A stretch of DNA of 64,000 nucleotides from Bacteroidales bacterium (GCA_017962445.1 JAGCVI010000021.1:3751-67750); one strand, 5' to 3'. Shown: positions 14,104 to 23,311, counted from the first letter of the stretch. Made by a program: numbers and translations. The notes: generated from the sequence alone by a model not told the origin.

Positions 14104-14111
14104 TAATTTTG
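14104..14111 (+). promoter_or_regulatory. Bacteroidota-type -7 promoter box (TAnnTTTG)
   Basis: TAATTTTG lies 22 nt before the ATG at 14134. Confidence 0.55.
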
Positions 14112-14133: not shown

Positions 14134-15204
14134 ATGCCCGCAAACAAAAACACAGTAACACGATACTACATTCTGGATAAGTTGTTGGCCAACCGTTACC
14201 ATCACTATTCCGTAGAGGACTTGCGTCAGCATGTCAACGAGGAGCTGAAAGAACTCGGACAGGAACCTGTGAGCCGCCGCACCATTGAACTCGACCTGCA
14301 CTATCTGGAGTATGAAGGTCCTTTCCTCGCAGAGATTGAACATTATCAGATAGATGTTCCTAGTCAGAAAAACCCCAATAAGACGGTCAAGAAGAGCTGT
14401 CACCGTTACGCAGATCCTTCGTTCTCAATCTTCAAGAAAGAATTGAAGGAGGATGAGAAGTACCTCCTCTCCGAAGCCTTGTCTTTGCTGGGACAGTTTG
14501 AGGGCCTTCCTAATTTGGATGGTCTGGAGACCCTGCGGAAGAGTCTAGACGTGAAGACCGACCGTCAGATAATCTCCTTCACCAAAAACCCGTTGGAAAA
14601 CTCGACGCTGCTTGGCGAACTCTTCACGGCTATCTCGCAGAAACAGGTTGTGGAAATCCACTATCACCGCTTTGAAGCCCCTGATGAAGAACGGCAGATT
14701 ACAGTTCATCCCTATTCGCTCAAAGAATACAACCGCCGTTGGTATCTGATGGCGACAGCCGATACAGACAAAAAAATCTTGATCCTTGCTCTTGACCGCA
14801 TTGATAGTGTTGTGCCTCTGCCTGCCAAAGGGTACGCTTCCTTTGATGGCGACATTAGCGAACGCTTCGAGGACATAATCGGGGTGACGCTTCACGAAGA
14901 CCGCCCCGTGCAGCCCATCCTCTTTTGGGTCAGTGACCATTCCAAGGACTATGTCGCCACAAAGCCCATCCACGAATCCCAGCGGCACTACAGCGGCGAG
15001 CGTGAAAAGGGACTTCGTCAGCAGTACCCGATGCTTGAAGGTGGATACTTCTTCTCTATCGAATGCGTCGAGAACTATGAGCTTATACGCGAACTCACCT
15101 CCTTTGGCGAAGACCTGATTGTGCTATCGCCAGAAGATATCCAGCAGAAGGTGATCAACAAAATAAATGGAATGCGCAACAAATATGACTTTATTTGCAA
15201 ATGA
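14134..15204 (+). CDS. HTH-WYL-WCX transcriptional regulator (BrxR/CapW-like architecture)
   Basis: N-terminal wHTH-like segment (VSRRTIELDLHYLE). WYL core reads ITVHPYSLKEYNRRWYLMA...LALDRI. C-terminal extension reads YELIRELTSFGEDLIVLSP. Confidence 0.8.
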   Translation: MPANKNTVTRYYILDKLLANRYHHYSVEDLRQHVNEELKELGQEPVSRRTIELDLHYLEYEGPFLAEIEHYQIDVPSQKNPNKTVKKSCHRYADPSFSIFKKELKEDEKYLLSEALSLLGQFEGLPNLDGLETLRKSLDVKTDRQIISFTKNPLENSTLLGELFTAISQKQVVEIHYHRFEAPDEERQITVHPYSLKEYNRRWYLMATADTDKKILILALDRIDSVVPLPAKGYASFDGDISERFEDIIGVTLHEDRPVQPILFWVSDHSKDYVATKPIHESQRHYSGEREKGLRQQYPMLEGGYFFSIECVENYELIRELTSFGEDLIVLSPEDIQQKVINKINGMRNKYDFICK

Positions 15205-15219
15205 TTGCGAATTATTTTG

Positions 15220-15227
15220 TAATTTTG
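15220..15227 (+). promoter_or_regulatory. Bacteroidota-type -7 promoter box (TAnnTTTG)
   Basis: TAATTTTG lies 23 nt before the ATG at 15251. Confidence 0.5.
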
Positions 15228-15250
15228 CATTTCGATAATTCAACAGAATA

Positions 15251-16390
15251 ATGGACAATAAACCCACATTTATATCCCGAGACGGAATGATTGCCGACAG
15301 CAATTATGTTCAGTGGATAGCAAATATTAAATCGCGCTTTCAACAAAGTCAAATTAAAGCTGCTGTGAAGGTGAATACTTCGCTCCTGGAGTTTTACTGG
15401 AGCGTAGGACGTGACTTGGTAGCCCTTAAAGCAGAAGAGCGTTGGGGCAGCGGAATAGTTAAACAGTTTGCTTTGGATATGCGGAATGCTTTCCCTGATG
15501 CTAAAGGCTTCTCTGACACAAACGTGAAGTATATGAAGCGCTGGTATCTGTTTTATTATAAGCAAGTTGAAAAAGATCAGCAAGCTGTTGGCCTTTGGGA
15601 AGACCCTAAAGGTCGGCAAGATGCCGACCAAATCAAAGAGACAAAAAAAGGTCGGCAACTTGCCGACCAATTAGAAATGCCCGAAATATTTGGTCAAATT
15701 CCATGGTATCATCATATTCGTATAATCAGCCACTGCAAGACTCTCGACGAAGCCATGTTCTATATGAACAAGACGATAGAAGAGGGCTGGAGCCGCAGCT
15801 GGCTCGAAGACCAGATCGCTCAAAACCTATACCGCAACCAGGGCTCTGCTATTACAAACTTTGACATCGCCTTGCCTGCGCCGCAAAGCAAGTTAGCAAA
15901 AGAGATTCTGAAAAACGAATACAATCTTAGTTTTATCAATGCCGAGTGTGTGAGGCAAGAAAAAGACCTGGAAGAGGCTCTTGTCGCGAACGTCACACGT
16001 TTTCTTCTGGAACTAGGGAAGGGGTTTGCATACGTGGGCCGACAGATGGAATTGAGGATGGATGATGAAACGGCATTCTTCCCGGACTTGGTTTTCTATC
16101 ACATACCGCAAAAACGTTACGTCATTATAGAGTTGAAGGCAGTCAAGTTCGAGCCGGAGTTTGCCGGCAAGTTGAATTTCTATGTCACCGCTGCCGACAA
16201 GCTTCTTAGGGGCGACGGTGACAACGAATCGGTAGGCCTGATAATTTGCAAAACAGCAAAGAAGACTATTGTCGAGTGGTCGCTGAAAGACATTAACAAG
16301 CCGTTAGGAGTATCGACTTACCAACTTGAAGAAGTCGTTGCCCGCACTATAGCAGAACTGGAACAACAAAAAGAGAAAGCCCGCAAATAG
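15251..16390 (+). CDS. DUF1016/YhcG-family PD-(D/E)xK nuclease-like protein
   Basis: N-terminal YhcG-type pattern (LLEFYWSVGRDL...WGSGIVKQFALDM...GFSDTNVKYMKRWY). C-terminal nuclease core reads GKGFAYVGRQ...FPDLVFYH...VIIELKAVKF. Confidence 0.8.
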   Translation: MDNKPTFISRDGMIADSNYVQWIANIKSRFQQSQIKAAVKVNTSLLEFYWSVGRDLVALKAEERWGSGIVKQFALDMRNAFPDAKGFSDTNVKYMKRWYLFYYKQVEKDQQAVGLWEDPKGRQDADQIKETKKGRQLADQLEMPEIFGQIPWYHHIRIISHCKTLDEAMFYMNKTIEEGWSRSWLEDQIAQNLYRNQGSAITNFDIALPAPQSKLAKEILKNEYNLSFINAECVRQEKDLEEALVANVTRFLLELGKGFAYVGRQMELRMDDETAFFPDLVFYHIPQKRYVIIELKAVKFEPEFAGKLNFYVTAADKLLRGDGDNESVGLIICKTAKKTIVEWSLKDINKPLGVSTYQLEEVVARTIAELEQQKEKARK

Positions 16391-16407: not shown

Positions 16408-16415
16408 TACTTTTG
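16408..16415 (+). promoter_or_regulatory. Bacteroidota-type -7 promoter box (TAnnTTTG) for the ATPase operon
   Basis: TACTTTTG lies 22 nt before the ATG at 16438. Confidence 0.5.
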
Positions 16416-16437
16416 CAAACGAAAACGAAATAGAAAA

Positions 16438-18021
16438 ATGAAAAATATGGAAAAACACAATCCTATTTTTAGTCTAAAGAATTTCCGTTCCTTTGGTGAA
16501 GAAGGTGCCGATTTTGAACTTGCACCAATTACCGTACTTACTGGATGTAATAGTGCCGGTAAAAGTTCTCTTGTGAAAGCATTGTTCCTTATGTCAATGC
16601 AAGGCAACAAACCAGGAGTGCTACCTATAAGCAACCTTCAAATATCATCTAAAGAATTAAATCTTGGAAGATTCGACAAAGTAATACACAAGAATGTAGA
16701 CGGAAAGATGATAAATCTATCATATAAAATGTGGTCGAATTATCTTCAAGAAACAGTAACGGTAAGCCGCTTCTTTGCCGAAAACAAGAACGATTTGCTT
16801 AACAATGGCGACCTTAAAATGTACACTATCGAGAAAGAAGACGGAACACTAATTTACCAGTATTGTCCAAAAGCTATTAACTATTCAGATCCATATATAG
16901 AAGAAAAGTATGAAGCAATCCAAAGCAATTTCACACGATTCTCCAAATCGTGCAGATACGTGGAATTAAAGCAAAAGCAAGCCATTTTAAGCCACAAAGA
17001 TTCGCTGAATAATGAAATGAAAGCCACCAAAGAAAGGATGGAAAAGGAACTGCTGGATTTTTCAAGTGAAATAGATATTATTAGGGTGGATGAGTATCCA
17101 GTCGAGTTGCTTAAAAAATTTGTAAATAGACATAATGAGGATGCAATAGTTGACTTGTATAAAGATTTATCCAAGGAGGAGAAAGAAAAGCTGGACTTCC
17201 AAGAATATTTTCAGCATGTTTGTAATGAAGTCATTGCACCATGGTTTATTAATGATATTGTATACGTGAATTCTTCTTCGGCTCAAATAGGCAGGGTTTA
17301 TGATATAAGTGACAGCAACAAGTTCTGCAAAGCTCTACACTCTTTAAATAACAAAACCGTAACATTCAAAGATAGTCTTCCTGTTGAAAGCTATTCAACA
17401 ACACACACGCCGCTCTCATTTGTCAATAAATGGATAAAGGCTTTCGGTATCGGTGATAGAATTGAGGTGGAAGGTACTATCGAAGGGTTAGGAGTCCTTA
17501 TCTATTTGATTAGGGGTAAAGAGAGAACATTACTTGCTGATGAAGGATATGGAATAACACAGTTAATATCGCTACTCATGCAAATTGATAATTCTATTCC
17601 TTTATATTTAGAAGGTAACCCTACTTTCAATCTAGAAAAATTTGAATATGATTACAGTAATTTAGATATGACATATCCGCATTATGTGATTTGTGTCGAG
17701 GAACCCGAGATACATTTACATCCTAAATACCAATCCTTGCTGGCAGACATGTTCTTGGAAGCTTACCAGAAATATAACATTCACTTCATTATCGAGACAC
17801 ATAGCGAGTATTTAATACGCAAACTCCAGGTAATGGTGGCCGATAAAGATAATACCATTACTTCCAATGAAGTTTCTCTTAATTATGTTGAGAAGGATGG
17901 GAATGGCGTGTCTACCAATCGCAAAATCGAGATATTGGAAGATGGCCGATTAAGTGAACCTTTTGGCCCTGGATTCTTTGATGAATCAAAATCCTTAGTC
18001 ATGCAAATGCTGAAATTCTAA
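16438..18021 (+). CDS. ABC/AAA_15-like P-loop ATPase with DUF3696-type C-terminus
   Basis: Walker A VLTGCNSAGKSS, signature-like LADEGYGITQ, Walker B VICVEEPEIHLHPKYQ, H-loop IIETHSEYLI, and C-terminal GPGFFDE. A long helical insert separates the two ATPase lobes. Confidence 0.8.
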   Translation: MKNMEKHNPIFSLKNFRSFGEEGADFELAPITVLTGCNSAGKSSLVKALFLMSMQGNKPGVLPISNLQISSKELNLGRFDKVIHKNVDGKMINLSYKMWSNYLQETVTVSRFFAENKNDLLNNGDLKMYTIEKEDGTLIYQYCPKAINYSDPYIEEKYEAIQSNFTRFSKSCRYVELKQKQAILSHKDSLNNEMKATKERMEKELLDFSSEIDIIRVDEYPVELLKKFVNRHNEDAIVDLYKDLSKEEKEKLDFQEYFQHVCNEVIAPWFINDIVYVNSSSAQIGRVYDISDSNKFCKALHSLNNKTVTFKDSLPVESYSTTHTPLSFVNKWIKAFGIGDRIEVEGTIEGLGVLIYLIRGKERTLLADEGYGITQLISLLMQIDNSIPLYLEGNPTFNLEKFEYDYSNLDMTYPHYVICVEEPEIHLHPKYQSLLADMFLEAYQKYNIHFIIETHSEYLIRKLQVMVADKDNTITSNEVSLNYVEKDGNGVSTNRKIEILEDGRLSEPFGPGFFDESKSLVMQMLKF

Positions 18022-18033
18022 AAACACATTATT

Positions 18034-19083
18034 ATGAAAAAACGGCTAATATACCTTCAATCTGGCTTTTGGAAAAAGATTAGGAAATGCGATAGTGTTG
18101 AAGACAAACGCATGTTTTGGGATTTATATGGAGCTTTGGAATGTTGTAATATTAAGGCTGACTTTACGTCAAGCGAATGGGCAGAAGATAAAGATGATTT
18201 ACTGTATTACTTGCTACAAAGCAGTTCTGATGGGAATGGGACGAAGATTGAATTTTGTGCCACTGAAAATATACAGGAAGCATTAGACTACACGAAAGAA
18301 CAGTCAATAGAGAATTTATGCGCTGCATTCCTTCTGGACGAAGAAACAAGGGTGTGTCTAGACCGAAGTAAAGAATTGGGAGTTTTGTGTTTAAACTCGG
18401 ATATGATAAAAGAGCATAAATTTGTTCGGGGTGATGCTGTTATGTATGAGAAAGGTGAGATGTTTGATAGATTTGACAAATGTAAAACAGCCCTTGCTTC
18501 TCCGTGCAATGCTATAATCTTAATTGATCCATATATACTGTTTAATAAATGGAGCGTTGAATTAAATTTAATTCCTTTGATGGATAAATGCTTACCGCCT
18601 GATCCCAAGAGGCAAGATGACCAGAAAATTGATTTTCATTTATCTATTCTTTCACAAACAAATCAATGTTTTATTGGCAAGTATAAAGATATACTTCGGT
18701 ATGAAAAGATTTATGACTATGTAAAAGAAGAAATCAGAAAGATTAGACCTAATATGAAATTAAAGTTTACTCTGTATCACACTAATACAACGGGTAATGG
18801 AGATGGGGATTTTCATAGCAGACATCTTGTAACAAATTGTATGCTTGTAAATTCCGAGGATGGTTTCGATTTTTTCGAAAATAAAAAGAATGAGTACACG
18901 GGGAAATGGGAAACGGTAAGTGGTAAACATGCTAGACTTGAGTTTCTATATCCTACACTACTTGATAATCGTCGTTTAGATGCTGATAATTATTATCGCT
19001 GGATAACACTGTCAGCAAACAATTGTGTCGATAATTCTTTGTGCTGGGGTGATAAAGAAAATCGATTGTTTGAATTAGTTTAA
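18034..19083 (+). CDS. hypothetical protein with MIT_C-like (PLD-fold) C-terminal region
   Basis: Starts 12 nt after the ATPase stop. LIDPYIL ... FHSRHLVTNCMLVNSEDGFDFF resembles, from memory, the MITD1 C-terminal domain motifs EDPYIR ... IHDREIRFNNGW..GRGLDYF. Not verified by profile search. Confidence 0.5.
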   Translation: MKKRLIYLQSGFWKKIRKCDSVEDKRMFWDLYGALECCNIKADFTSSEWAEDKDDLLYYLLQSSSDGNGTKIEFCATENIQEALDYTKEQSIENLCAAFLLDEETRVCLDRSKELGVLCLNSDMIKEHKFVRGDAVMYEKGEMFDRFDKCKTALASPCNAIILIDPYILFNKWSVELNLIPLMDKCLPPDPKRQDDQKIDFHLSILSQTNQCFIGKYKDILRYEKIYDYVKEEIRKIRPNMKLKFTLYHTNTTGNGDGDFHSRHLVTNCMLVNSEDGFDFFENKKNEYTGKWETVSGKHARLEFLYPTLLDNRRLDADNYYRWITLSANNCVDNSLCWGDKENRLFELV

Positions 19084-19087
19084 TAGC

Positions 19088-19981
19088 ATGGCGTACATTA
19101 CCAACGCAAATTTCCGAAGAATAACAAGAGAATTCGACGTTCCCAAAGACAAGAATTTCTCGTTTAACGATATCGTTATTTGGGAATCGCCCAATGGTAA
19201 AGTTGTTGACAAGAAAAATCCATATATCTTCAGTTGGTGGGAAGTCAATGAGTTGCTTACCTTTAAGGAATTCTGCAAGGATACAAAGATGGCTGTTGAG
19301 CACTTCTATAGAAAAATAGAGAAACCACTAGACAGCCTCAAGTACGTTGATCCAGAACGATGCCCTGCTTACCATTGTGATAGGAACTGCGAGGCTATGC
19401 ATTCATCTCTTCAACGAATAGAAATACCAGAAGAAATAAGAGAACAAGGAAAAGATAAAGTACAGGAATTCCGAAAATGGTGGAAAAGTAACGAGAGTAT
19501 TCGAGAAGAAAAGCCCGATGCTTTTGTGGCCAAACTTAATTTAGCGTTTGGTACAAAGCTTCATGGTTATGAGGTTGAGGACAAAAGCAACTCTGGGGTT
19601 CATGACATGACAGACAATCGTTCTATCAAAGAGATAAATCAAGAAATACGCACGAAGTTTAATGATTTGTTTAAATGGGCAAAAGATGAAGAAAGAAGGA
19701 AAAAGATTTTTGTGAAATTCAAATTCCTATCTTTTTTGGGGGATAGTGATTATCCAATACTAATCGACACTGGCAATTTCACTGAAAGTGAGATTAAAAC
19801 CGTTTTGAGAGATGTGCATTCAAGGAAAAAAGAAATTGTTGAAGAACTCAAAAAGTTATATCAGAGAAGGTACATCCCCGATTTAAACTTTCAGACCTCA
19901 TTGCTAGAGAACCTCGGTTTTGTTCCTTGCTACACCTGTATGGGTGGCATTGCTGAAGAGCATGTTTTTGATGAGGAATGA
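19088..19981 (+). CDS. hypothetical Cys-rich protein, third gene of the ATPase operon
   Basis: Starts 4 nt after the preceding stop. Contains CPAYHCDRNCEAMH and C-terminal CYTC clusters. No family recognised. Confidence 0.5.
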   Translation: MAYITNANFRRITREFDVPKDKNFSFNDIVIWESPNGKVVDKKNPYIFSWWEVNELLTFKEFCKDTKMAVEHFYRKIEKPLDSLKYVDPERCPAYHCDRNCEAMHSSLQRIEIPEEIREQGKDKVQEFRKWWKSNESIREEKPDAFVAKLNLAFGTKLHGYEVEDKSNSGVHDMTDNRSIKEINQEIRTKFNDLFKWAKDEERRKKIFVKFKFLSFLGDSDYPILIDTGNFTESEIKTVLRDVHSRKKEIVEELKKLYQRRYIPDLNFQTSLLENLGFVPCYTCMGGIAEEHVFDEE

Positions 19982-20245
19982 AAGAAACGCGTTTTTTTAC
20001 ATAAAATTATTTATAAACCGGAATCTTGTCACTGCATTAGACATCCTGTTTGCGTGACGGGGTATCGTCAGGATGTCTGTTGATAAAAAAATGCCGTTTG
20101 ACAATGAGACGTTTGACACTGGGCGGGTGCTCTGCAAATTGATAGTCAGGTAATTATAATGTTGTGTTATGTTGTTGATATACAAATAGATGCACGCGGT
20201 TTATAACTTCCGCCCTATGTTTAAAAAGTGAACGCTTTTCCGCTG

Positions 20246-20253
20246 TAACTTTG
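20246..20253 (+). promoter_or_regulatory. Bacteroidota-type -7 promoter box (TAnnTTTG) for the retron-like transcript
   Basis: TAACTTTG lies about 30-40 nt upstream of the a1-like arm of the ncRNA. Confidence 0.5.
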
Positions 20254-20283
20254 CAAACGAAATTGCACGCTAAAGAGTTCTTT

Positions 20284-20588
20284 GAAACAGTTGTCACCCA
20301 TTAGTCTGAATTAGAAACTTCCGGCTGTTTACCAGTCGGTCGCCGTCTGCTGCAATCGGCAGATTCCGGGCGGTGGACTTCCGGTCCATGCAGGCCCGCA
20401 TAGCAATGTCGCTTCACCGGCGGTCCGCGTCTACAACCGTGGCGCGGCGTCGTGCGGCCTTAGTGACGAGGGATAGCCAGGCAAGAGCCGAGTTGTCCCC
20501 CGGCATCATCCCGCGCTCCACAACTCGGCTCTTGCCTGGGTTCAGGGGACATATCTGAAGTAATGGGGGACAGGGTGGCAGCTGTTTT
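20284..20588 (+). ncRNA. retron msr-msd-like non-coding RNA
   Basis: GC-rich non-coding stretch immediately 5' of a retron-type RT. Has a perfect 20-bp stem (20477-20496 / 20520-20539, 23-nt loop). Flanking a1/a2-type pairing is either 20291-20303 with 20561-20573 or 20284-20299 with 20573-20588. CACCCATTAG at 20295-20304 mirrors the Ec86 CACCCTTAG branch-G context. Confidence 0.6.
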
Positions 20589-20642
20589 GGGAACCGGCGG
20601 ATGGATGCAGGGAGTCGGAATAGTTCAAATGTATAATTCAAA

Positions 20643-21785
20643 ATGAAGAAAGTGGCTGAAATAACTGACAGGAGAGCGGAAGTCAAGGCTGCGGAGACGC
20701 GAATCCATGACCTGTGGAGTTGCCTTCACACTAAGAGGGACCTCCTCAGGCTGGTGAACGTTGCGCTTGAAGGTCTGTATGGCATGGACGCGAGAACGGT
20801 CACGATGAGGCAGTTGAACCTATCCGCATACTCCTCGCTTAATGCGCACAGGTACCGCACTTTCCAAATTCCTAAGAAGAGGAAAGGCGAGTTCCGCACT
20901 ATCGACGCGCCTGACCCCACGCTGAAATACATACAGCAGGGGCTGAACTTTGTGCTGCAGACCGTCCACACTCCCCATCCCGCCGCAATGGGCTTTGTTC
21001 CTCACCGTTCAACGGTGACAGGTGCAAAAGTGCATCTGGGCCAGAGGTTTGTGTATAATATCGACCTAAAGGACTTCTTCCACACCGTCACGTCGGGGCG
21101 GCTATACAAGCGTCTGACTTTGGAGCCGTTCTGTCTGGACGGCGAGGTGGCAGGCCTAATCACTGACCTCTGCTGTTACATGGGTCCCGACGGAAGAAAC
21201 GTGCTGCCTATGGGCGCTCCCACGTCGCCTGCGGTGACAAACATAATCTGCGAGCGTATGGACGGAAAACTATCACGGCTGGCTAGGGTATACGGCTTGA
21301 AATACTCACGCTACGCCGACGACATCACCTTCAGCGGAATGGCGGATGTCTTCGCCGAGGACGGACGTTTCATCATGTCGATGCGCAACATCATCGTGAA
21401 TGAGGAAGGCTTCACCATCAATCCCGAAAAGACTAGGCTCTGCCACTGGGGTATGCGCCAGGAGGTCACTGGCATCACGGTGAACAGCAGGGAGAATGTC
21501 CCGCGGAAGTACGTAAAGCAGTTGCGGACAATGATTCACAACTGGGAGATGGACGGACACGACAAGGCTCAGGCTGTCTTCGAGAAGTACTATATGGAGC
21601 AGAACTACACGCACAATCCCGATGTGAAGCACCATATCGAGAACGTTGTCGCAGGGAAACTTCTGTACCTCAAAATGGTGAAGGGCGAGACTGACCCGAC
21701 ATACAGGGCCCTCGACCGCAGGTTCAGAGCCCTGACGGAAACAGGCGGGCGGGATACGCAAGGAACTGGAAAAAACAGATTATAA
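20643..21785 (+). CDS. retron-type reverse transcriptase
   Basis: RT motifs 1-7: FQIPKKRKGEFRTIDAP, NIDLKDFF, LPMGAPTSPAVTN, YSRYADDITFSG and INPEKT. Also has the retron-typical RQEVTGITVN (VTG) segment. Confidence 0.85.
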   Translation: MKKVAEITDRRAEVKAAETRIHDLWSCLHTKRDLLRLVNVALEGLYGMDARTVTMRQLNLSAYSSLNAHRYRTFQIPKKRKGEFRTIDAPDPTLKYIQQGLNFVLQTVHTPHPAAMGFVPHRSTVTGAKVHLGQRFVYNIDLKDFFHTVTSGRLYKRLTLEPFCLDGEVAGLITDLCCYMGPDGRNVLPMGAPTSPAVTNIICERMDGKLSRLARVYGLKYSRYADDITFSGMADVFAEDGRFIMSMRNIIVNEEGFTINPEKTRLCHWGMRQEVTGITVNSRENVPRKYVKQLRTMIHNWEMDGHDKAQAVFEKYYMEQNYTHNPDVKHHIENVVAGKLLYLKMVKGETDPTYRALDRRFRALTETGGRDTQGTGKNRL

Positions 21786-21806
21786 AGAATAATACAGTAT
21801 AACACA

Positions 21807-22712
21807 ATGAAACTGAATAAGCTTTTATACCATATCAGGGAGAAGGAGGACTGCATCCCTACAGGAATACCGAGCCTCGACGAACTGACTGGCGGCCTGC
21901 CTGTGGGCGGCATAACAGCCCTTGCTGCACGCCCATCGATGGGCAAGACTCCCTTTGCGATGACAGTGGTGCGAAACGCCGGAATCATTGGCAGGATTCC
22001 CACAGCGGTCCTTTCTTTTGAGGACGACAGTGAATATGTCGCCAAGCGCCTTCTTGCTACCCAGATAGGATGGGACGCGGTGAAATCGATGGAGCACGAT
22101 CCTGTCAGGCTCACAGCTGAGCAGAAGGAGAAAATCGGGAAACTGGAGCAGATAGGCTTCATATCGCAGAATATTGAAGACTCTAGTTTCCTCGAAAAGA
22201 TGAAGGAAGCCCCGGTGTGGATTGAACACGATGCCTATGTGACGATGGACGAGCTGGTGAGCAAGATTGAACGCCTGAAACGCGAGAACAACATCAGCTT
22301 GCTGGTCATTGACAACTTCGGGCATATCGCTATGGACGGCTATGCTTCCGACAAGGAACATAAGATGCAGAAACTGCTACAAACCGCAGAGCGGCTTAAG
22401 ATTGCCGTGCTTGTGACGGCAAGGGTGCTGCGGAGTGTAGAGACTCGCGGCGGAACAAAAAAGCCGATGCTTTCTGATATTGAGAATGAGGCATTTCTCG
22501 AAAACTACGCATCGCTGATAGTGTTCCTATACCGCCCGGAATACTACTGCATCTTTGAGGACGAATACGGTTCTACACTTAACAAGGCCTATGCCATCGT
22601 TGCCCGCAATAAGCGCGGCGACATTGGCGAGGTGAGCCTTGATTTTGTAAAAAAGGCTAGGTTCGCCGACTGGACCCCGATTAATAAAACATTTAATAAG
22701 ATAATAATATGA
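21807..22712 (+). CDS. DnaB C-terminal-domain-like (RecA-fold) P-loop ATPase lacking the DnaB N-terminal domain
   Basis: IPTGIPSLDELTGGL...AARPSMGKTPFAM (Walker A) and LLVIDNFGHI (Walker B) align by eye with E. coli DnaB GVPTGFTDLD...AARPSMGKTTFAM...LIMIDYLQL. Only about 20 aa precede the ATPase core. Starts 21 nt after the RT stop. Confidence 0.75.
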   Translation: MKLNKLLYHIREKEDCIPTGIPSLDELTGGLPVGGITALAARPSMGKTPFAMTVVRNAGIIGRIPTAVLSFEDDSEYVAKRLLATQIGWDAVKSMEHDPVRLTAEQKEKIGKLEQIGFISQNIEDSSFLEKMKEAPVWIEHDAYVTMDELVSKIERLKRENNISLLVIDNFGHIAMDGYASDKEHKMQKLLQTAERLKIAVLVTARVLRSVETRGGTKKPMLSDIENEAFLENYASLIVFLYRPEYYCIFEDEYGSTLNKAYAIVARNKRGDIGEVSLDFVKKARFADWTPINKTFNKIII

Positions 22713-23311
22713 TACCAGGTAATTCTGAATTATTAAAATGCCCGTTTTGCGGCGAAGAAAAGGAAGTGCTGACATTGCTTTCAGGGAACACTTGCAATGG
22801 CCAGCAATGGTCTGACATGAAAAGCATATATCCTATGTTGCCAAAGGTTTCTCCCATTCAGAAATGCCCTTCCTGCGGCAAATACTATTTCACTAAGGAT
22901 GCGGAGAAGCGACAGGGTAAGGCCTACAGCCTTGAGAAAGGCGACCTTACATACACGCAGCTGAAAGAAGCGGCAGTCCAGTTCGGTGACGAAATATCCA
23001 AAGAAGACCGATTTGTCCTTGACTTGCTTCTGCTGTGGGCGTACAACGACCTCTACAATAGGGAAGACGTGAATATAACGGATGCACCCGCCGAGGAGAA
23101 AGCGTATATTGATACTGTCCTTGACAGGCTGGTAGAAAGGGAGGATATTGACAATATTATGAAGGCTGAATTCTACAGGGAAATGGGCCTTTTCGTCTAT
23201 GTGCCTCTGCTAATCAGTCAGCTTAATATTGAAGACCCATTCCTCAGAGATGTCGCCAAGCGTATCCACGACTACGCTAAGTGCAAGAAAAGCATAGCAT
23301 TTAAAATATAA
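22709..23311 (+). CDS. hypothetical zinc-ribbon protein
   Basis: ATGA start/stop overlap with the ATPase gene. N-terminal CPFC...CPSC four-Cys ribbon followed by a helical region. No family recognised. Confidence 0.55.
   Translation: MIPGNSELLKCPFCGEEKEVLTLLSGNTCNGQQWSDMKSIYPMLPKVSPIQKCPSCGKYYFTKDAEKRQGKAYSLEKGDLTYTQLKEAAVQFGDEISKEDRFVLDLLLLWAYNDLYNREDVNITDAPAEEKAYIDTVLDRLVEREDIDNIMKAEFYREMGLFVYVPLLISQLNIEDPFLRDVAKRIHDYAKCKKSIAFKI

Follow-up and report, generated by a model that had tools for sequence, protein, structure and literature searches.

Do the three tightly spaced genes found in an AT-rich island of a Bacteroidales genome operate as one system and, if they do not, which of them belong together? 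The locus lies within a 64,000-nucleotide stretch from Bacteroidales bacterium (GCA_017962445.1 JAGCVI010000021.1:3751-67750), referred to here in its entirety as the window, and comprises three open reading frames (ORFs), all on the + strand, separated by intergenic gaps of 12 nt (genes 1 and 2) and 4 nt (genes 2 and 3). An earlier note based on the sequence had described them as an operon encoding an ABC-like ATPase of the DUF3696 type, a protein resembling the MIT_C/phospholipase D (PLD) fold and a Cys-rich protein, and had proposed a defence function of the ATPase-plus-effector kind; the ORFs, their tight spacing, the AT-rich island and the motifs reported for genes 1 and 2 were all recovered in the present analysis. 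The results presented below suggest that genes 1 and 2 make up an anti-phage module of two genes that is complete in itself and shares the design of the Menshen B and C parts, as well as that of PARIS and Septu, a reading to which we assign a probability of roughly 0.6. The pair is best filed as a new variant of the Menshen-type ATPase-effector module that lacks the NsnA component, and gene 3 is a separable add-on rather than a core part of it.

Genes 1 and 2 form a conserved and coupled pair

Related loci (63, designated by L numbers) were gathered by exact-protein look-ups and pattern scans, and were scanned with profiles of the window genes. Pair statistics refer to the 23 distinct pairs of an ATPase gene and a gene 2 homologue found in rumen or gut Bacteroidales, the window included. 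The two genes are adjacent in all 23 distinct loci, among them 13 of 13 in species-representative genomes; they overlap by 4 nt in 11 loci and lie no more than 12 nt apart in the others. The slot after gene 2 varies, and may hold a NERD/UvrD helicase, a PIF1 helicase, a DUF1016 protein, a radical SAM protein, a DUF1848 protein with a helicase, or a GHKL-type protein; even where gene 2 identity reaches 74%, the slot is taken by a NERD/UvrD gene and gene 3 is missing from it. Gene 3 lies directly behind the pair in two of the 23 loci, the window and the locus represented by L012-L014/L029, where the order ATPase, MIT_C protein, gene 3 recurs with a 1-nt gap, and where gene 2 is 26% and gene 3 68% identical to its window counterpart. 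The three-gene unit that the earlier note had expected to be conserved does not, therefore, stand up to comparison: what is kept is the pair. The conserved trio, if any, consists of the WYL, ATPase and PLD genes. A WYL-WCX homologue is found upstream of the pair in nearly all loci, directly adjacent in about nine and with one or two genes in between in the rest (DUF1016, AAA_14/DUF4143, DUF234 or SLFN_AlbA_2), and the order WYL-DUF1016-ATPase-gene 2 seen in the window is also present in L016, L019, L022, L023 and L027.

Gene 1 encodes an NsnB-like ATPase

The gene 1 product matches the Pfam models AAA_15 (2e-20) and, over residues 474-523, DUF3696 (6.5e-7), and no fused nuclease was detected with Pfam; as the earlier note had it, this is an ABC ATPase of the DUF3696 type, and the AAA_15 group to which it belongs is associated with defence. 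NsnB, the Menshen ATPase, heads the 109 PADLOC matches to this protein (6e-43), with residues 12-525 aligned to positions 6-343 of the 345-position profile, followed by PDC-M55A, HEC-03B, AriA (6e-19), PtuA (3e-13) and GajA; weak RecF/SMC_N matches were also obtained. Motif conservation was read from an alignment of 11 family members, in which, besides the Walker A, Walker B and H-loop residues listed in Table 1, the GxG signature (G370-Y-G372) is invariant, as is the pattern G510-x-G-F-x-D-E516 that takes the form G510-PGFFDE-516 in the window. The Walker B motif carries E421-E422, not E-N. Family members range from 466 to 724 amino acids (aa) in length, and the hypervariable middle of the protein is a candidate trigger-sensing surface.

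Gene 2 encodes an MIT_C-type PLD-fold protein

Relatives of gene 2 number 41 at the cluster level and 57 by profile search, and all their named sources are Bacteroidales metagenome-assembled genomes, mostly from the rumen. The invariant columns of the family are D165-P166 (LIDPYI), H261-x-R263...T267-N268 (FHSRHLVTN), G277-F278 and N343-RLF346, with the middle residue of H-x-R varying among S, D, E, R, A, G and N and being D in a sister subfamily. The Pfam MIT_C model (PF16565) is matched by 7 of 24 gene 2 relatives (best 3.8e-7), and by BLASTP the window protein aligns (6e-25) to a homologue of 312 aa whose motif is literally HDR and for which MIT_C is listed in precomputed annotation. A profile of the HDR sister subfamily finds MITD1 among PDB sequences (4A5Z, 5e-4; 2YMB, 7e-4), in an alignment that pairs D-x-Y-I, IHDR-x4-N and G-x-G-F with EDPYIR, IHDREIRFNN and GRGLDYF of MITD1. 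The more homogeneous HDR subfamily was needed for a profile to reach MITD1, the mixed family profile returning nothing from PDB sequences but a spurious eIF2 match (E 0.48). The AlphaFold2 model of the window protein (predicted local distance difference test, pLDDT, 90.2; predicted template modelling score, pTM, 0.90) was compared to the PDB with Foldseek, which placed MITD1 first (2YMB, E 7e-6), followed only by PLD-superfamily enzymes (Streptomyces PLD, PLD3/4, Tdp1, PssA). The MIT_C/PLD assignment of the earlier note is hence upheld by Pfam, BLASTP, profile and structural matches alike.

The domain does not present the canonical catalytic H-x-K-x4-D motif; its sequence is H261-S-R263-H-L-V-T-N268, that is, H-x-R-x4-N as in MITD1. 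No PIN-type conserved acidic residues were found in the N-terminal domain in the family alignment, and this domain is a candidate adaptor of the inactive-PIN type.

No NsnA lies beside the pair, and the ATPase tail co-varies with gene 2

Menshen comprises NsnA (ParB-DUF262 + ParBDB, the proposed sensor), NsnB (AAA_15 + DUF3696) and NsnC (PMC12065111). No DUF262 gene was found near the pair in the precomputed Pfam lists of those related loci whose gene calls carried such annotation, nor in the 11.8-27 kb flanks of the locus in the window, where the genes upstream encode WYL-WCX and DUF1016 proteins.

Comparison of the window with L012 reveals a mosaic at the DNA level. Identity amounts to 70-81% in gene 3, the WYL gene and the two ends of gene 1 (78-81% for the gene 1 ends), whereas the central part of gene 1 and nearly the whole of gene 2 have been replaced. 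Across the 23 pairs, the ATPase tail that follows GFFDE falls into discrete types that track the clade of gene 2, and the distance matrices of tail and gene 2 are correlated (ρ = 0.59 and 0.53, permutation P = 0.001), whereas those of the ATPase N-terminus, middle and core show no correlation with gene 2 (ρ = 0.06-0.24). Such co-variation supports a contact between the tail and the gene 2 protein, and fits the DUF3696-NsnC contact predicted for Menshen.

Proposed mode of action

In the model that we propose, the NsnB-like ABC ATPase would oligomerise and, through its C-terminal DUF3696 tail, sequester the gene 2 protein and keep it inactive. The latter would combine an adaptor N-domain, probably of the inactive-PIN type, with an MIT_C-type PLD domain that carries a single H-x-R-x4-N half-site; because PLD enzymes need two half-sites, the gene 2 protein would have to pair up to become active. 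Since no NsnA/DUF262 sensor accompanies the pair, detection of infection is attributed in this model to the ATPase itself, most likely via its hypervariable middle, in the manner of AriA in PARIS. Binding or hydrolysis of ATP would then release or re-arrange the effector, and the gene 2 protein would cut nucleic acid and stop the infection. The WYL-WCX regulator at the head of the island would probably set expression, as BrxR-type regulators do elsewhere (PMC9122601).

Gene 3 belongs to a large family found in several contexts

No family model for gene 3 was found in Pfam, NCBIfam or PHROGs, and PADLOC yielded only a marginal CARF_PDDEXK match (0.0026) and no match to a known retron-associated effector model. 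Close relatives number 27 at the cluster level, and an exhaustive profile search expanded the family to 737 clusters at 50% identity, 551 of them with E <= 1e-10. The universal core, as derived from 105 representatives, consists of P93-x-Y-H96-x4-C101, P114, R129, N168-S-G170, K247 and C281-x-x-C284. From the CxxxHCxxxC and CxxC clusters previously singled out, H96, C101 and C281-x-x-C284 are conserved, but C92 and C97 are not. This conservation pattern suggests an H-C...C-C metal site built from distant segments of the protein, and the family probably binds metal. Fold searches with the predicted structure (pLDDT 80) were negative against both the PDB (best E 5) and the viral models of BFVD (best E 2); longer members of the family add TPR, WG_beta_rep or HTH_40 modules.

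A gene of the same orientation, coding for about 240-350 aa, usually precedes the relatives of gene 3 at a distance of 1-64 nt, and its identity changes from locus to locus. This gene encodes the PLD protein in the window and L012, a HEPN-like protein with an R-N-x-x-x-H motif (C3) after close homologues of the window's retron-type reverse transcriptase (RT) in L010, L030-L032, L042, L043 and L045, and an HNH_3 protein after MotA/OmpA-like genes, in a Zorya-like cluster, in L011. Because gene 3 is mostly absent behind the pair, and present after RT-C3, Zorya-like and other clusters, it is a separable, promiscuous add-on from a large, unannotated and defence-associated family, and not a core part of the module. 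Guanine-cytosine (GC) content amounts to 0.36, 0.35 and 0.38 for genes 1, 2 and 3, whereas the window as a whole has 0.49 and the RT gene 0.54; as evidence that gene 3 belongs with genes 1 and 2 it was rejected as weak, given that low GC is typical of gene 3 relatives in every context.

A broader role for this family can be envisaged, in which it would act as a widespread immunity plug-in (a generic sensor, safety catch or co-effector) co-transcribed behind unrelated nuclease effectors of the PLD/MIT_C, HEPN-like and HNH kinds, and would form with the NsnA-less pair a previously unnamed three-part system in this lineage; we regard this idea as tentative and rather unlikely. Gene 3 draws attention to a large protein family that lacks annotation and turns up time and again on defence operons, and it poses a more open question than the pair does.

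Two further arrangements of the family were observed. In L010, a 394-aa gene 3 paralogue (L010:8981-10165; E 3e-19) lies directly downstream of the gene 3 homologue, forming a tandem pair, and has no PADLOC match. Distant homologues stand beside MotA/ExbB-like and OmpA-like genes in L011 (L011:4185-8129) and L046/L048, with HNH_3 next in L011, an arrangement that resembles Zorya type II.

Weighing the alternatives

Several points weigh against genes 1 and 2 being a self-contained defence module. The search for NsnA covered the 64-kb window, and a copy elsewhere in the host genome is possible. The window gene 2 protein by itself gave no usable match in Pfam, NCBIfam, PHROGs or PADLOC; its link to MIT_C is one of family-level and structural evidence. 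Because H-x-R-x4-N replaces H-x-K-x4-D, the catalytic competence of gene 2 is uncertain, and the domain could bind rather than cut; the MIT_C domain of MITD1 is not known to be catalytically active. Cassette recombination alone could yield the co-variation of tail and gene 2, since the tail physically adjoins gene 2. A functional link of gene 3 to the pair is also possible in these lineages, in view of the 4-nt gap, the recurrence in L012 and the proximity of a gene 3 homologue to a third, divergent pair in L056/L057.

Taken to its full extent, such a link would make the locus a true three-gene system, with gene 3 replacing NsnA as sensor or third subunit beside the ATPase and the PLD effector. 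No promoter box separates genes 2 and 3, the order is repeated in L012-L014/L029 in spite of the disparate identities of genes 2 and 3 to those of the window, a gene 3 homologue is found three genes after another divergent ATPase-HDR-PLD pair in L056/L057, and low GC is common to all three genes. The last of these observations is weak, for gene 3 is AT-rich in every locus, and gene 3 is missing from the position directly behind 21 of the 23 distinct pairs, among them the pair with 74% gene 2 identity, their third slot being held by the NERD/UvrD, PIF1, DUF1016, radical-SAM, DUF1848 or GHKL proteins mentioned above. Gene 3 relatives, moreover, follow RT-C3 clusters in at least six loci and a Zorya-like cluster in one. 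A dedicated three-gene system is, on balance, unlikely.

The association with RT clusters raises a different possibility, namely that the functional partner of gene 3 is the adjacent retron and that the upstream operon contributes no more than its transcription. In L010, L030, L031, L032, L039, L040, L042, L043 and L045, gene 3 homologues are found after close homologues of the window RT (E 7e-115 to 3e-144), typically in the order RT, C3, gene 3; in the window, gene 3 is the last gene before the retron leader, and L012 contains both gene 3 and a homologue (2e-38) of the Zn-ribbon gene that follows the window retron. This association is one of position only, and the position itself differs in the window, where gene 3 is upstream of the RT gene, 661 nt away and with a separate TAACTTTG box in between, but only 4 nt from gene 2. 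The window retron has a DnaB_C-like ATPase and a Zn-ribbon protein as partners, and no C3, the GC contents of the RT gene and gene 3 argue for separate origins, and L012 has gene 3 but no RT. Membership of gene 3 in the retron is accordingly doubtful, and we consider it distinctly improbable; the short gap to gene 2, the distance to the RT gene and the different partners and GC of the retron indicate that gene 3 is probably co-transcribed with the pair in this locus.

That the pair has no immune role at all, and serves housekeeping or mobile-element maintenance, for instance with the ATPase acting in DNA repair in the manner of SMC/RecF and the MIT_C protein binding lipids or membranes, is very improbable: the MIT_C domain of MITD1 is membrane-binding, H-x-R-x4-N is not the catalytic HKD motif and the ATPase has weak RecF/SMC_N matches, but the pair is patchy and mosaic in distribution, low in GC and embedded among defence genes behind a WYL regulator, its nearest profile matches are the NsnB, PARIS, Septu and Gabija ATPases, and the hypervariable ATPase insert and effector replacement are typical of conflict systems.

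The locus and its island setting

The two-gene module is located in a defence island, and the ATPase-plus-effector logic put forward in the earlier note fits. The recurrent surroundings of the pair include WYL, PDC-S02, retron RT, SLFN_AlbA_2, PIF1/UvrD helicases and DUF4143 ATPases. In the window, Pfam and PADLOC confirmed the neighbours that had been named, WYL and DUF1016 nuclease genes on one side and a retron on the other, and the entire block stands between housekeeping genes, which encode FabF, FabH and a LytTR protein to the left of it and a C92 amidase to the right. The coordinates of all features are collected in Table 1.

Table 1. Positions of the genes, domains and motifs in the window, counted from its first nucleotide.
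Feature	Position	Strand	Remarks
WYL-WCX regulator gene	14134..15204	+	Pfam WYL 4e-14, WCX 6.6e-6; PADLOC WYL 9e-24
DUF1016/YhcG PDDEXK nuclease gene (PADLOC candidate PDC-S02)	15251..16390	+	YhcG_C 1e-49, DUF1016_N 7e-34 (Pfam); PDC-S02 5e-126 (PADLOC)
Candidate promoter box TACTTTTG, Bacteroidota-type -7	16408..16415	+	23 nt before gene 1 ATG; for gene 1-3 transcript
Gene 1	16438..18021	+	527 aa; NsnB-like ABC ATPase, AAA_15 + DUF3696 tail
Gene 1, Walker A, G36-CNSAGK-S43	16543..16566	+	G36, N38, S39, G41, K42, S43 invariant (11 members)
Gene 1, hypervariable, indel-rich middle, residues about 56-410	16603..17667	+	All length variation falls here
Gene 1, Walker B (V420-EEPEIHLHP-429) to H-loop (E453-THSEY-458)	17695..17811	+	E421, E422, P423, E424, H426-P429, E453-Y458 invariant
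Gene 1, DUF3696 C-terminal segment and tail (GPGFFDE, then ...SKSLVMQMLKF)	17857..18018	+	Predicted docking element for gene 2
Gene 2	18034..19083	+	349 aa; N-terminal alpha/beta domain + C-terminal MIT_C-type PLD-fold domain
Gene 2, N-terminal alpha/beta domain, residues 1 to about 150	18034..18483	+	Alternating strand-helix order, AlphaFold2 pLDDT 90
Gene 2, C-terminal MIT_C-type PLD-fold domain, putative effector	18496..19083	+	D165-P166 at 18526-18531; H261-x-R263-x4-N268 at 18814-18837
Gene 3	19088..19981	+	297 aa; uncharacterised family, H96/C101/C281/C284 signature + N168-S-G170 motif
Retron-type RT gene	20643..21785		Downstream of gene 3; then DnaB_C-like ATPase, Zn-ribbon protein

The position from which the earlier note had counted the operon, 16408, is the first base of the TACTTTTG box ahead of gene 1. 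The 8-mer box motif has 50 matches in the window against 33.6 expected, which makes it weak evidence by itself; further copies are located at 14104 and 15220, just ahead of the WYL and DUF1016 genes, respectively, and at 20246 within the retron leader. A scan for terminators gave no confident prediction within the operon or immediately behind it.

WYL-WCX and DUF1016/YhcG (PDC-S02) genes are adjacent, at times with a 4-nt overlap, and head a variable cargo in the window (14134-16390) as well as in L016, L019, L022, L023, L027 and L032. The WYL protein is far better conserved (E to 1e-176) than anything downstream of it, which suggests a WYL-anchored integration hotspot. The WYL-WCX gene is a recurrent island head and the likely transcriptional controller of the downstream cargo, the pair included. 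Its N-terminal helix-turn-helix (HTH) region obtained only a sub-threshold FUR-like match in Pfam (0.072). The DUF1016 gene counts as island cargo of its own that has been inserted after the WYL gene and ahead of the pair. Just downstream of ATPase-PLD pairs, PIF1, NERD-UvrD and UvrD_C helicases, a GHKL-type protein of 796 aa and DUF1848 recur (L001:9108-12823; L053, L055, L051, L056, L061); these genes may be further linked modules or separate systems.

The retron-like unit that follows gene 3 (20000-23311) opens with a GC-rich structured leader, with long hairpins at about 20041-20078 and 20480-20537, and continues with an unfused RT of 380 aa, the DnaB_C-like ATPase (Pfam 1.6e-41) and the Zn-ribbon protein. 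In PADLOC, the RT best matches the RT portions of types XI, XII and I-C, which are fused, and an Rfam scan of 13-24 kb returned no credible match to a retron non-coding RNA. The Zn-ribbon protein (22709-23311) has two CxxC pairs and a weak Lar-like match, and its gene behaves as independent island cargo, because homologues occur in two islands without RT (L012:9939-10562, 2e-38; L055:10765-11299, 2e-27).

A trio composed of a retron-type RT, a HEPN-like protein of 240-340 aa and a gene 3 homologue recurs in rumen Bacteroidales, usually behind a WYL gene (L010:5635-8885; L031:3787-6939; L043:3750-7017; L045). Neither PADLOC nor Pfam has a model for the HEPN-like C3 or the gene 3 homologue in this trio, and the arrangement may be an undescribed RT-based system. 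A grouping of C3, a 317-aa protein of L012 and the window DnaB_C-like protein into one family was rejected for want of similarity, the L012 protein resembling an unrelated lipoprotein, and the assignment of a 310-aa protein of L057 to the C3/HEPN type was likewise rejected.

Comparison with named systems

WYL regulators co-localise with many defence systems (PMC9122601), and the protein encoded at the head of the window island resembles those of the BrxR/CapW type in that a WYL + WCX protein heads variable defence cargo and stays conserved (up to E-176) while the cargo changes. The WYL and WCX parts of the wHTH-WYL-WCX architecture are present in it, and the N-terminal HTH was not detected by Pfam.

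With the MIT_C domain of MITD1 and PLD nucleases (Nuc/NucT, PLD3/4, Tdp1), gene 2 shares its fold, 2YMB being the top structural match, and with MITD1 it also shares DPY and H-x-R-x4-N...G-x-G-F. Among the differences, it is bacterial, possesses another N-terminal domain and is coupled to an ABC ATPase, and the lysine and aspartate of the classic HKD motif are replaced by arginine and asparagine. MIT_C also occurs at the C-terminus of BrxL, and is not itself known to possess an activity. An immune function of the pair would lend independent support to the idea that MIT_C-type PLD domains, found as well in human MITD1 and BrxL, are effector modules in immunity.

PARIS (AriA-AriB) and Septu (PtuA-PtuB) likewise join an AAA_15 ABC ATPase to a separate nuclease effector, which in those systems is held by ATPase dimers, and in PARIS the ATPase is the sensor. 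The effector of the present pair, however, is of the PLD/MIT_C type, as opposed to DUF4435/Toprim (AriB) or HNH (PtuB), its ATPase bears a DUF3696 tail, and the AriA and PtuA scores are far weaker than that of NsnB. Membership in PARIS, Septu or Gabija was rejected on the basis of PADLOC and Pfam, with which no DUF4435/Toprim AriB, HNH PtuB or ATPase-fused Toprim was found.

The earlier note had been unable to assign the locus to any named system. A close named relative does exist in Menshen, but the locus lacks NsnA and is a variant rather than a member. In Menshen, NsnC consists of an N-terminal inactive PIN domain and a polymorphic C-terminal effector, one class of which, PB-PLD1, resembles MIT_C and has both an HDR motif and an acidic residue that follows beta-2. 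In the AlphaFold 3 models of that study, two DUF3696 tails of the NsnB tetramer hold the N-domain of NsnC between them, in the manner of PARIS and Septu (PMC12065111). Gene 1 shares the AAA_15 + DUF3696 architecture with NsnB, which is also its best profile match. Of the motif variants reported for NsnB of S. silvestris, namely Walker B EN, a GxG signature and a Q-loop arginine (PMC12065111), gene 1 shows GxG but has EE in Walker B. Gene 2, which matches the PB-PLD1 class, is downstream and translationally coupled, and joins an N-terminal alpha/beta domain to an MIT_C-like PLD domain with an acidic residue (D165) and H-(D/S)-R; here too the effector is highly polymorphic and the ATPase ends are conserved. 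The differences lie in the absence of NsnA beside the pair, in the window and in the related loci with Pfam-annotated gene calls, with WYL-WCX upstream instead, in an ATPase of 466-724 aa with a hypervariable insert compared to an NsnB profile of 345 positions, and in a Walker B motif with EE in place of the EN reported for NsnB. Canonical Menshen membership was rejected on account of the missing NsnA. The published Menshen survey (Li et al., NAR 2025) was anchored on DUF262 matches (PMC12065111), and NsnA-less loci are therefore beyond its reach. If the two-gene reading is correct, the search space for Menshen-like systems, so far defined and mined through the DUF262 sensor NsnA, becomes wider, and the Menshen B-C core can work alone in the manner of PARIS and Septu, probably sensing via the hypervariable insert of the ATPase, which would offer a simpler system, of two proteins only, in which to study effector control by DUF3696 ATPases.

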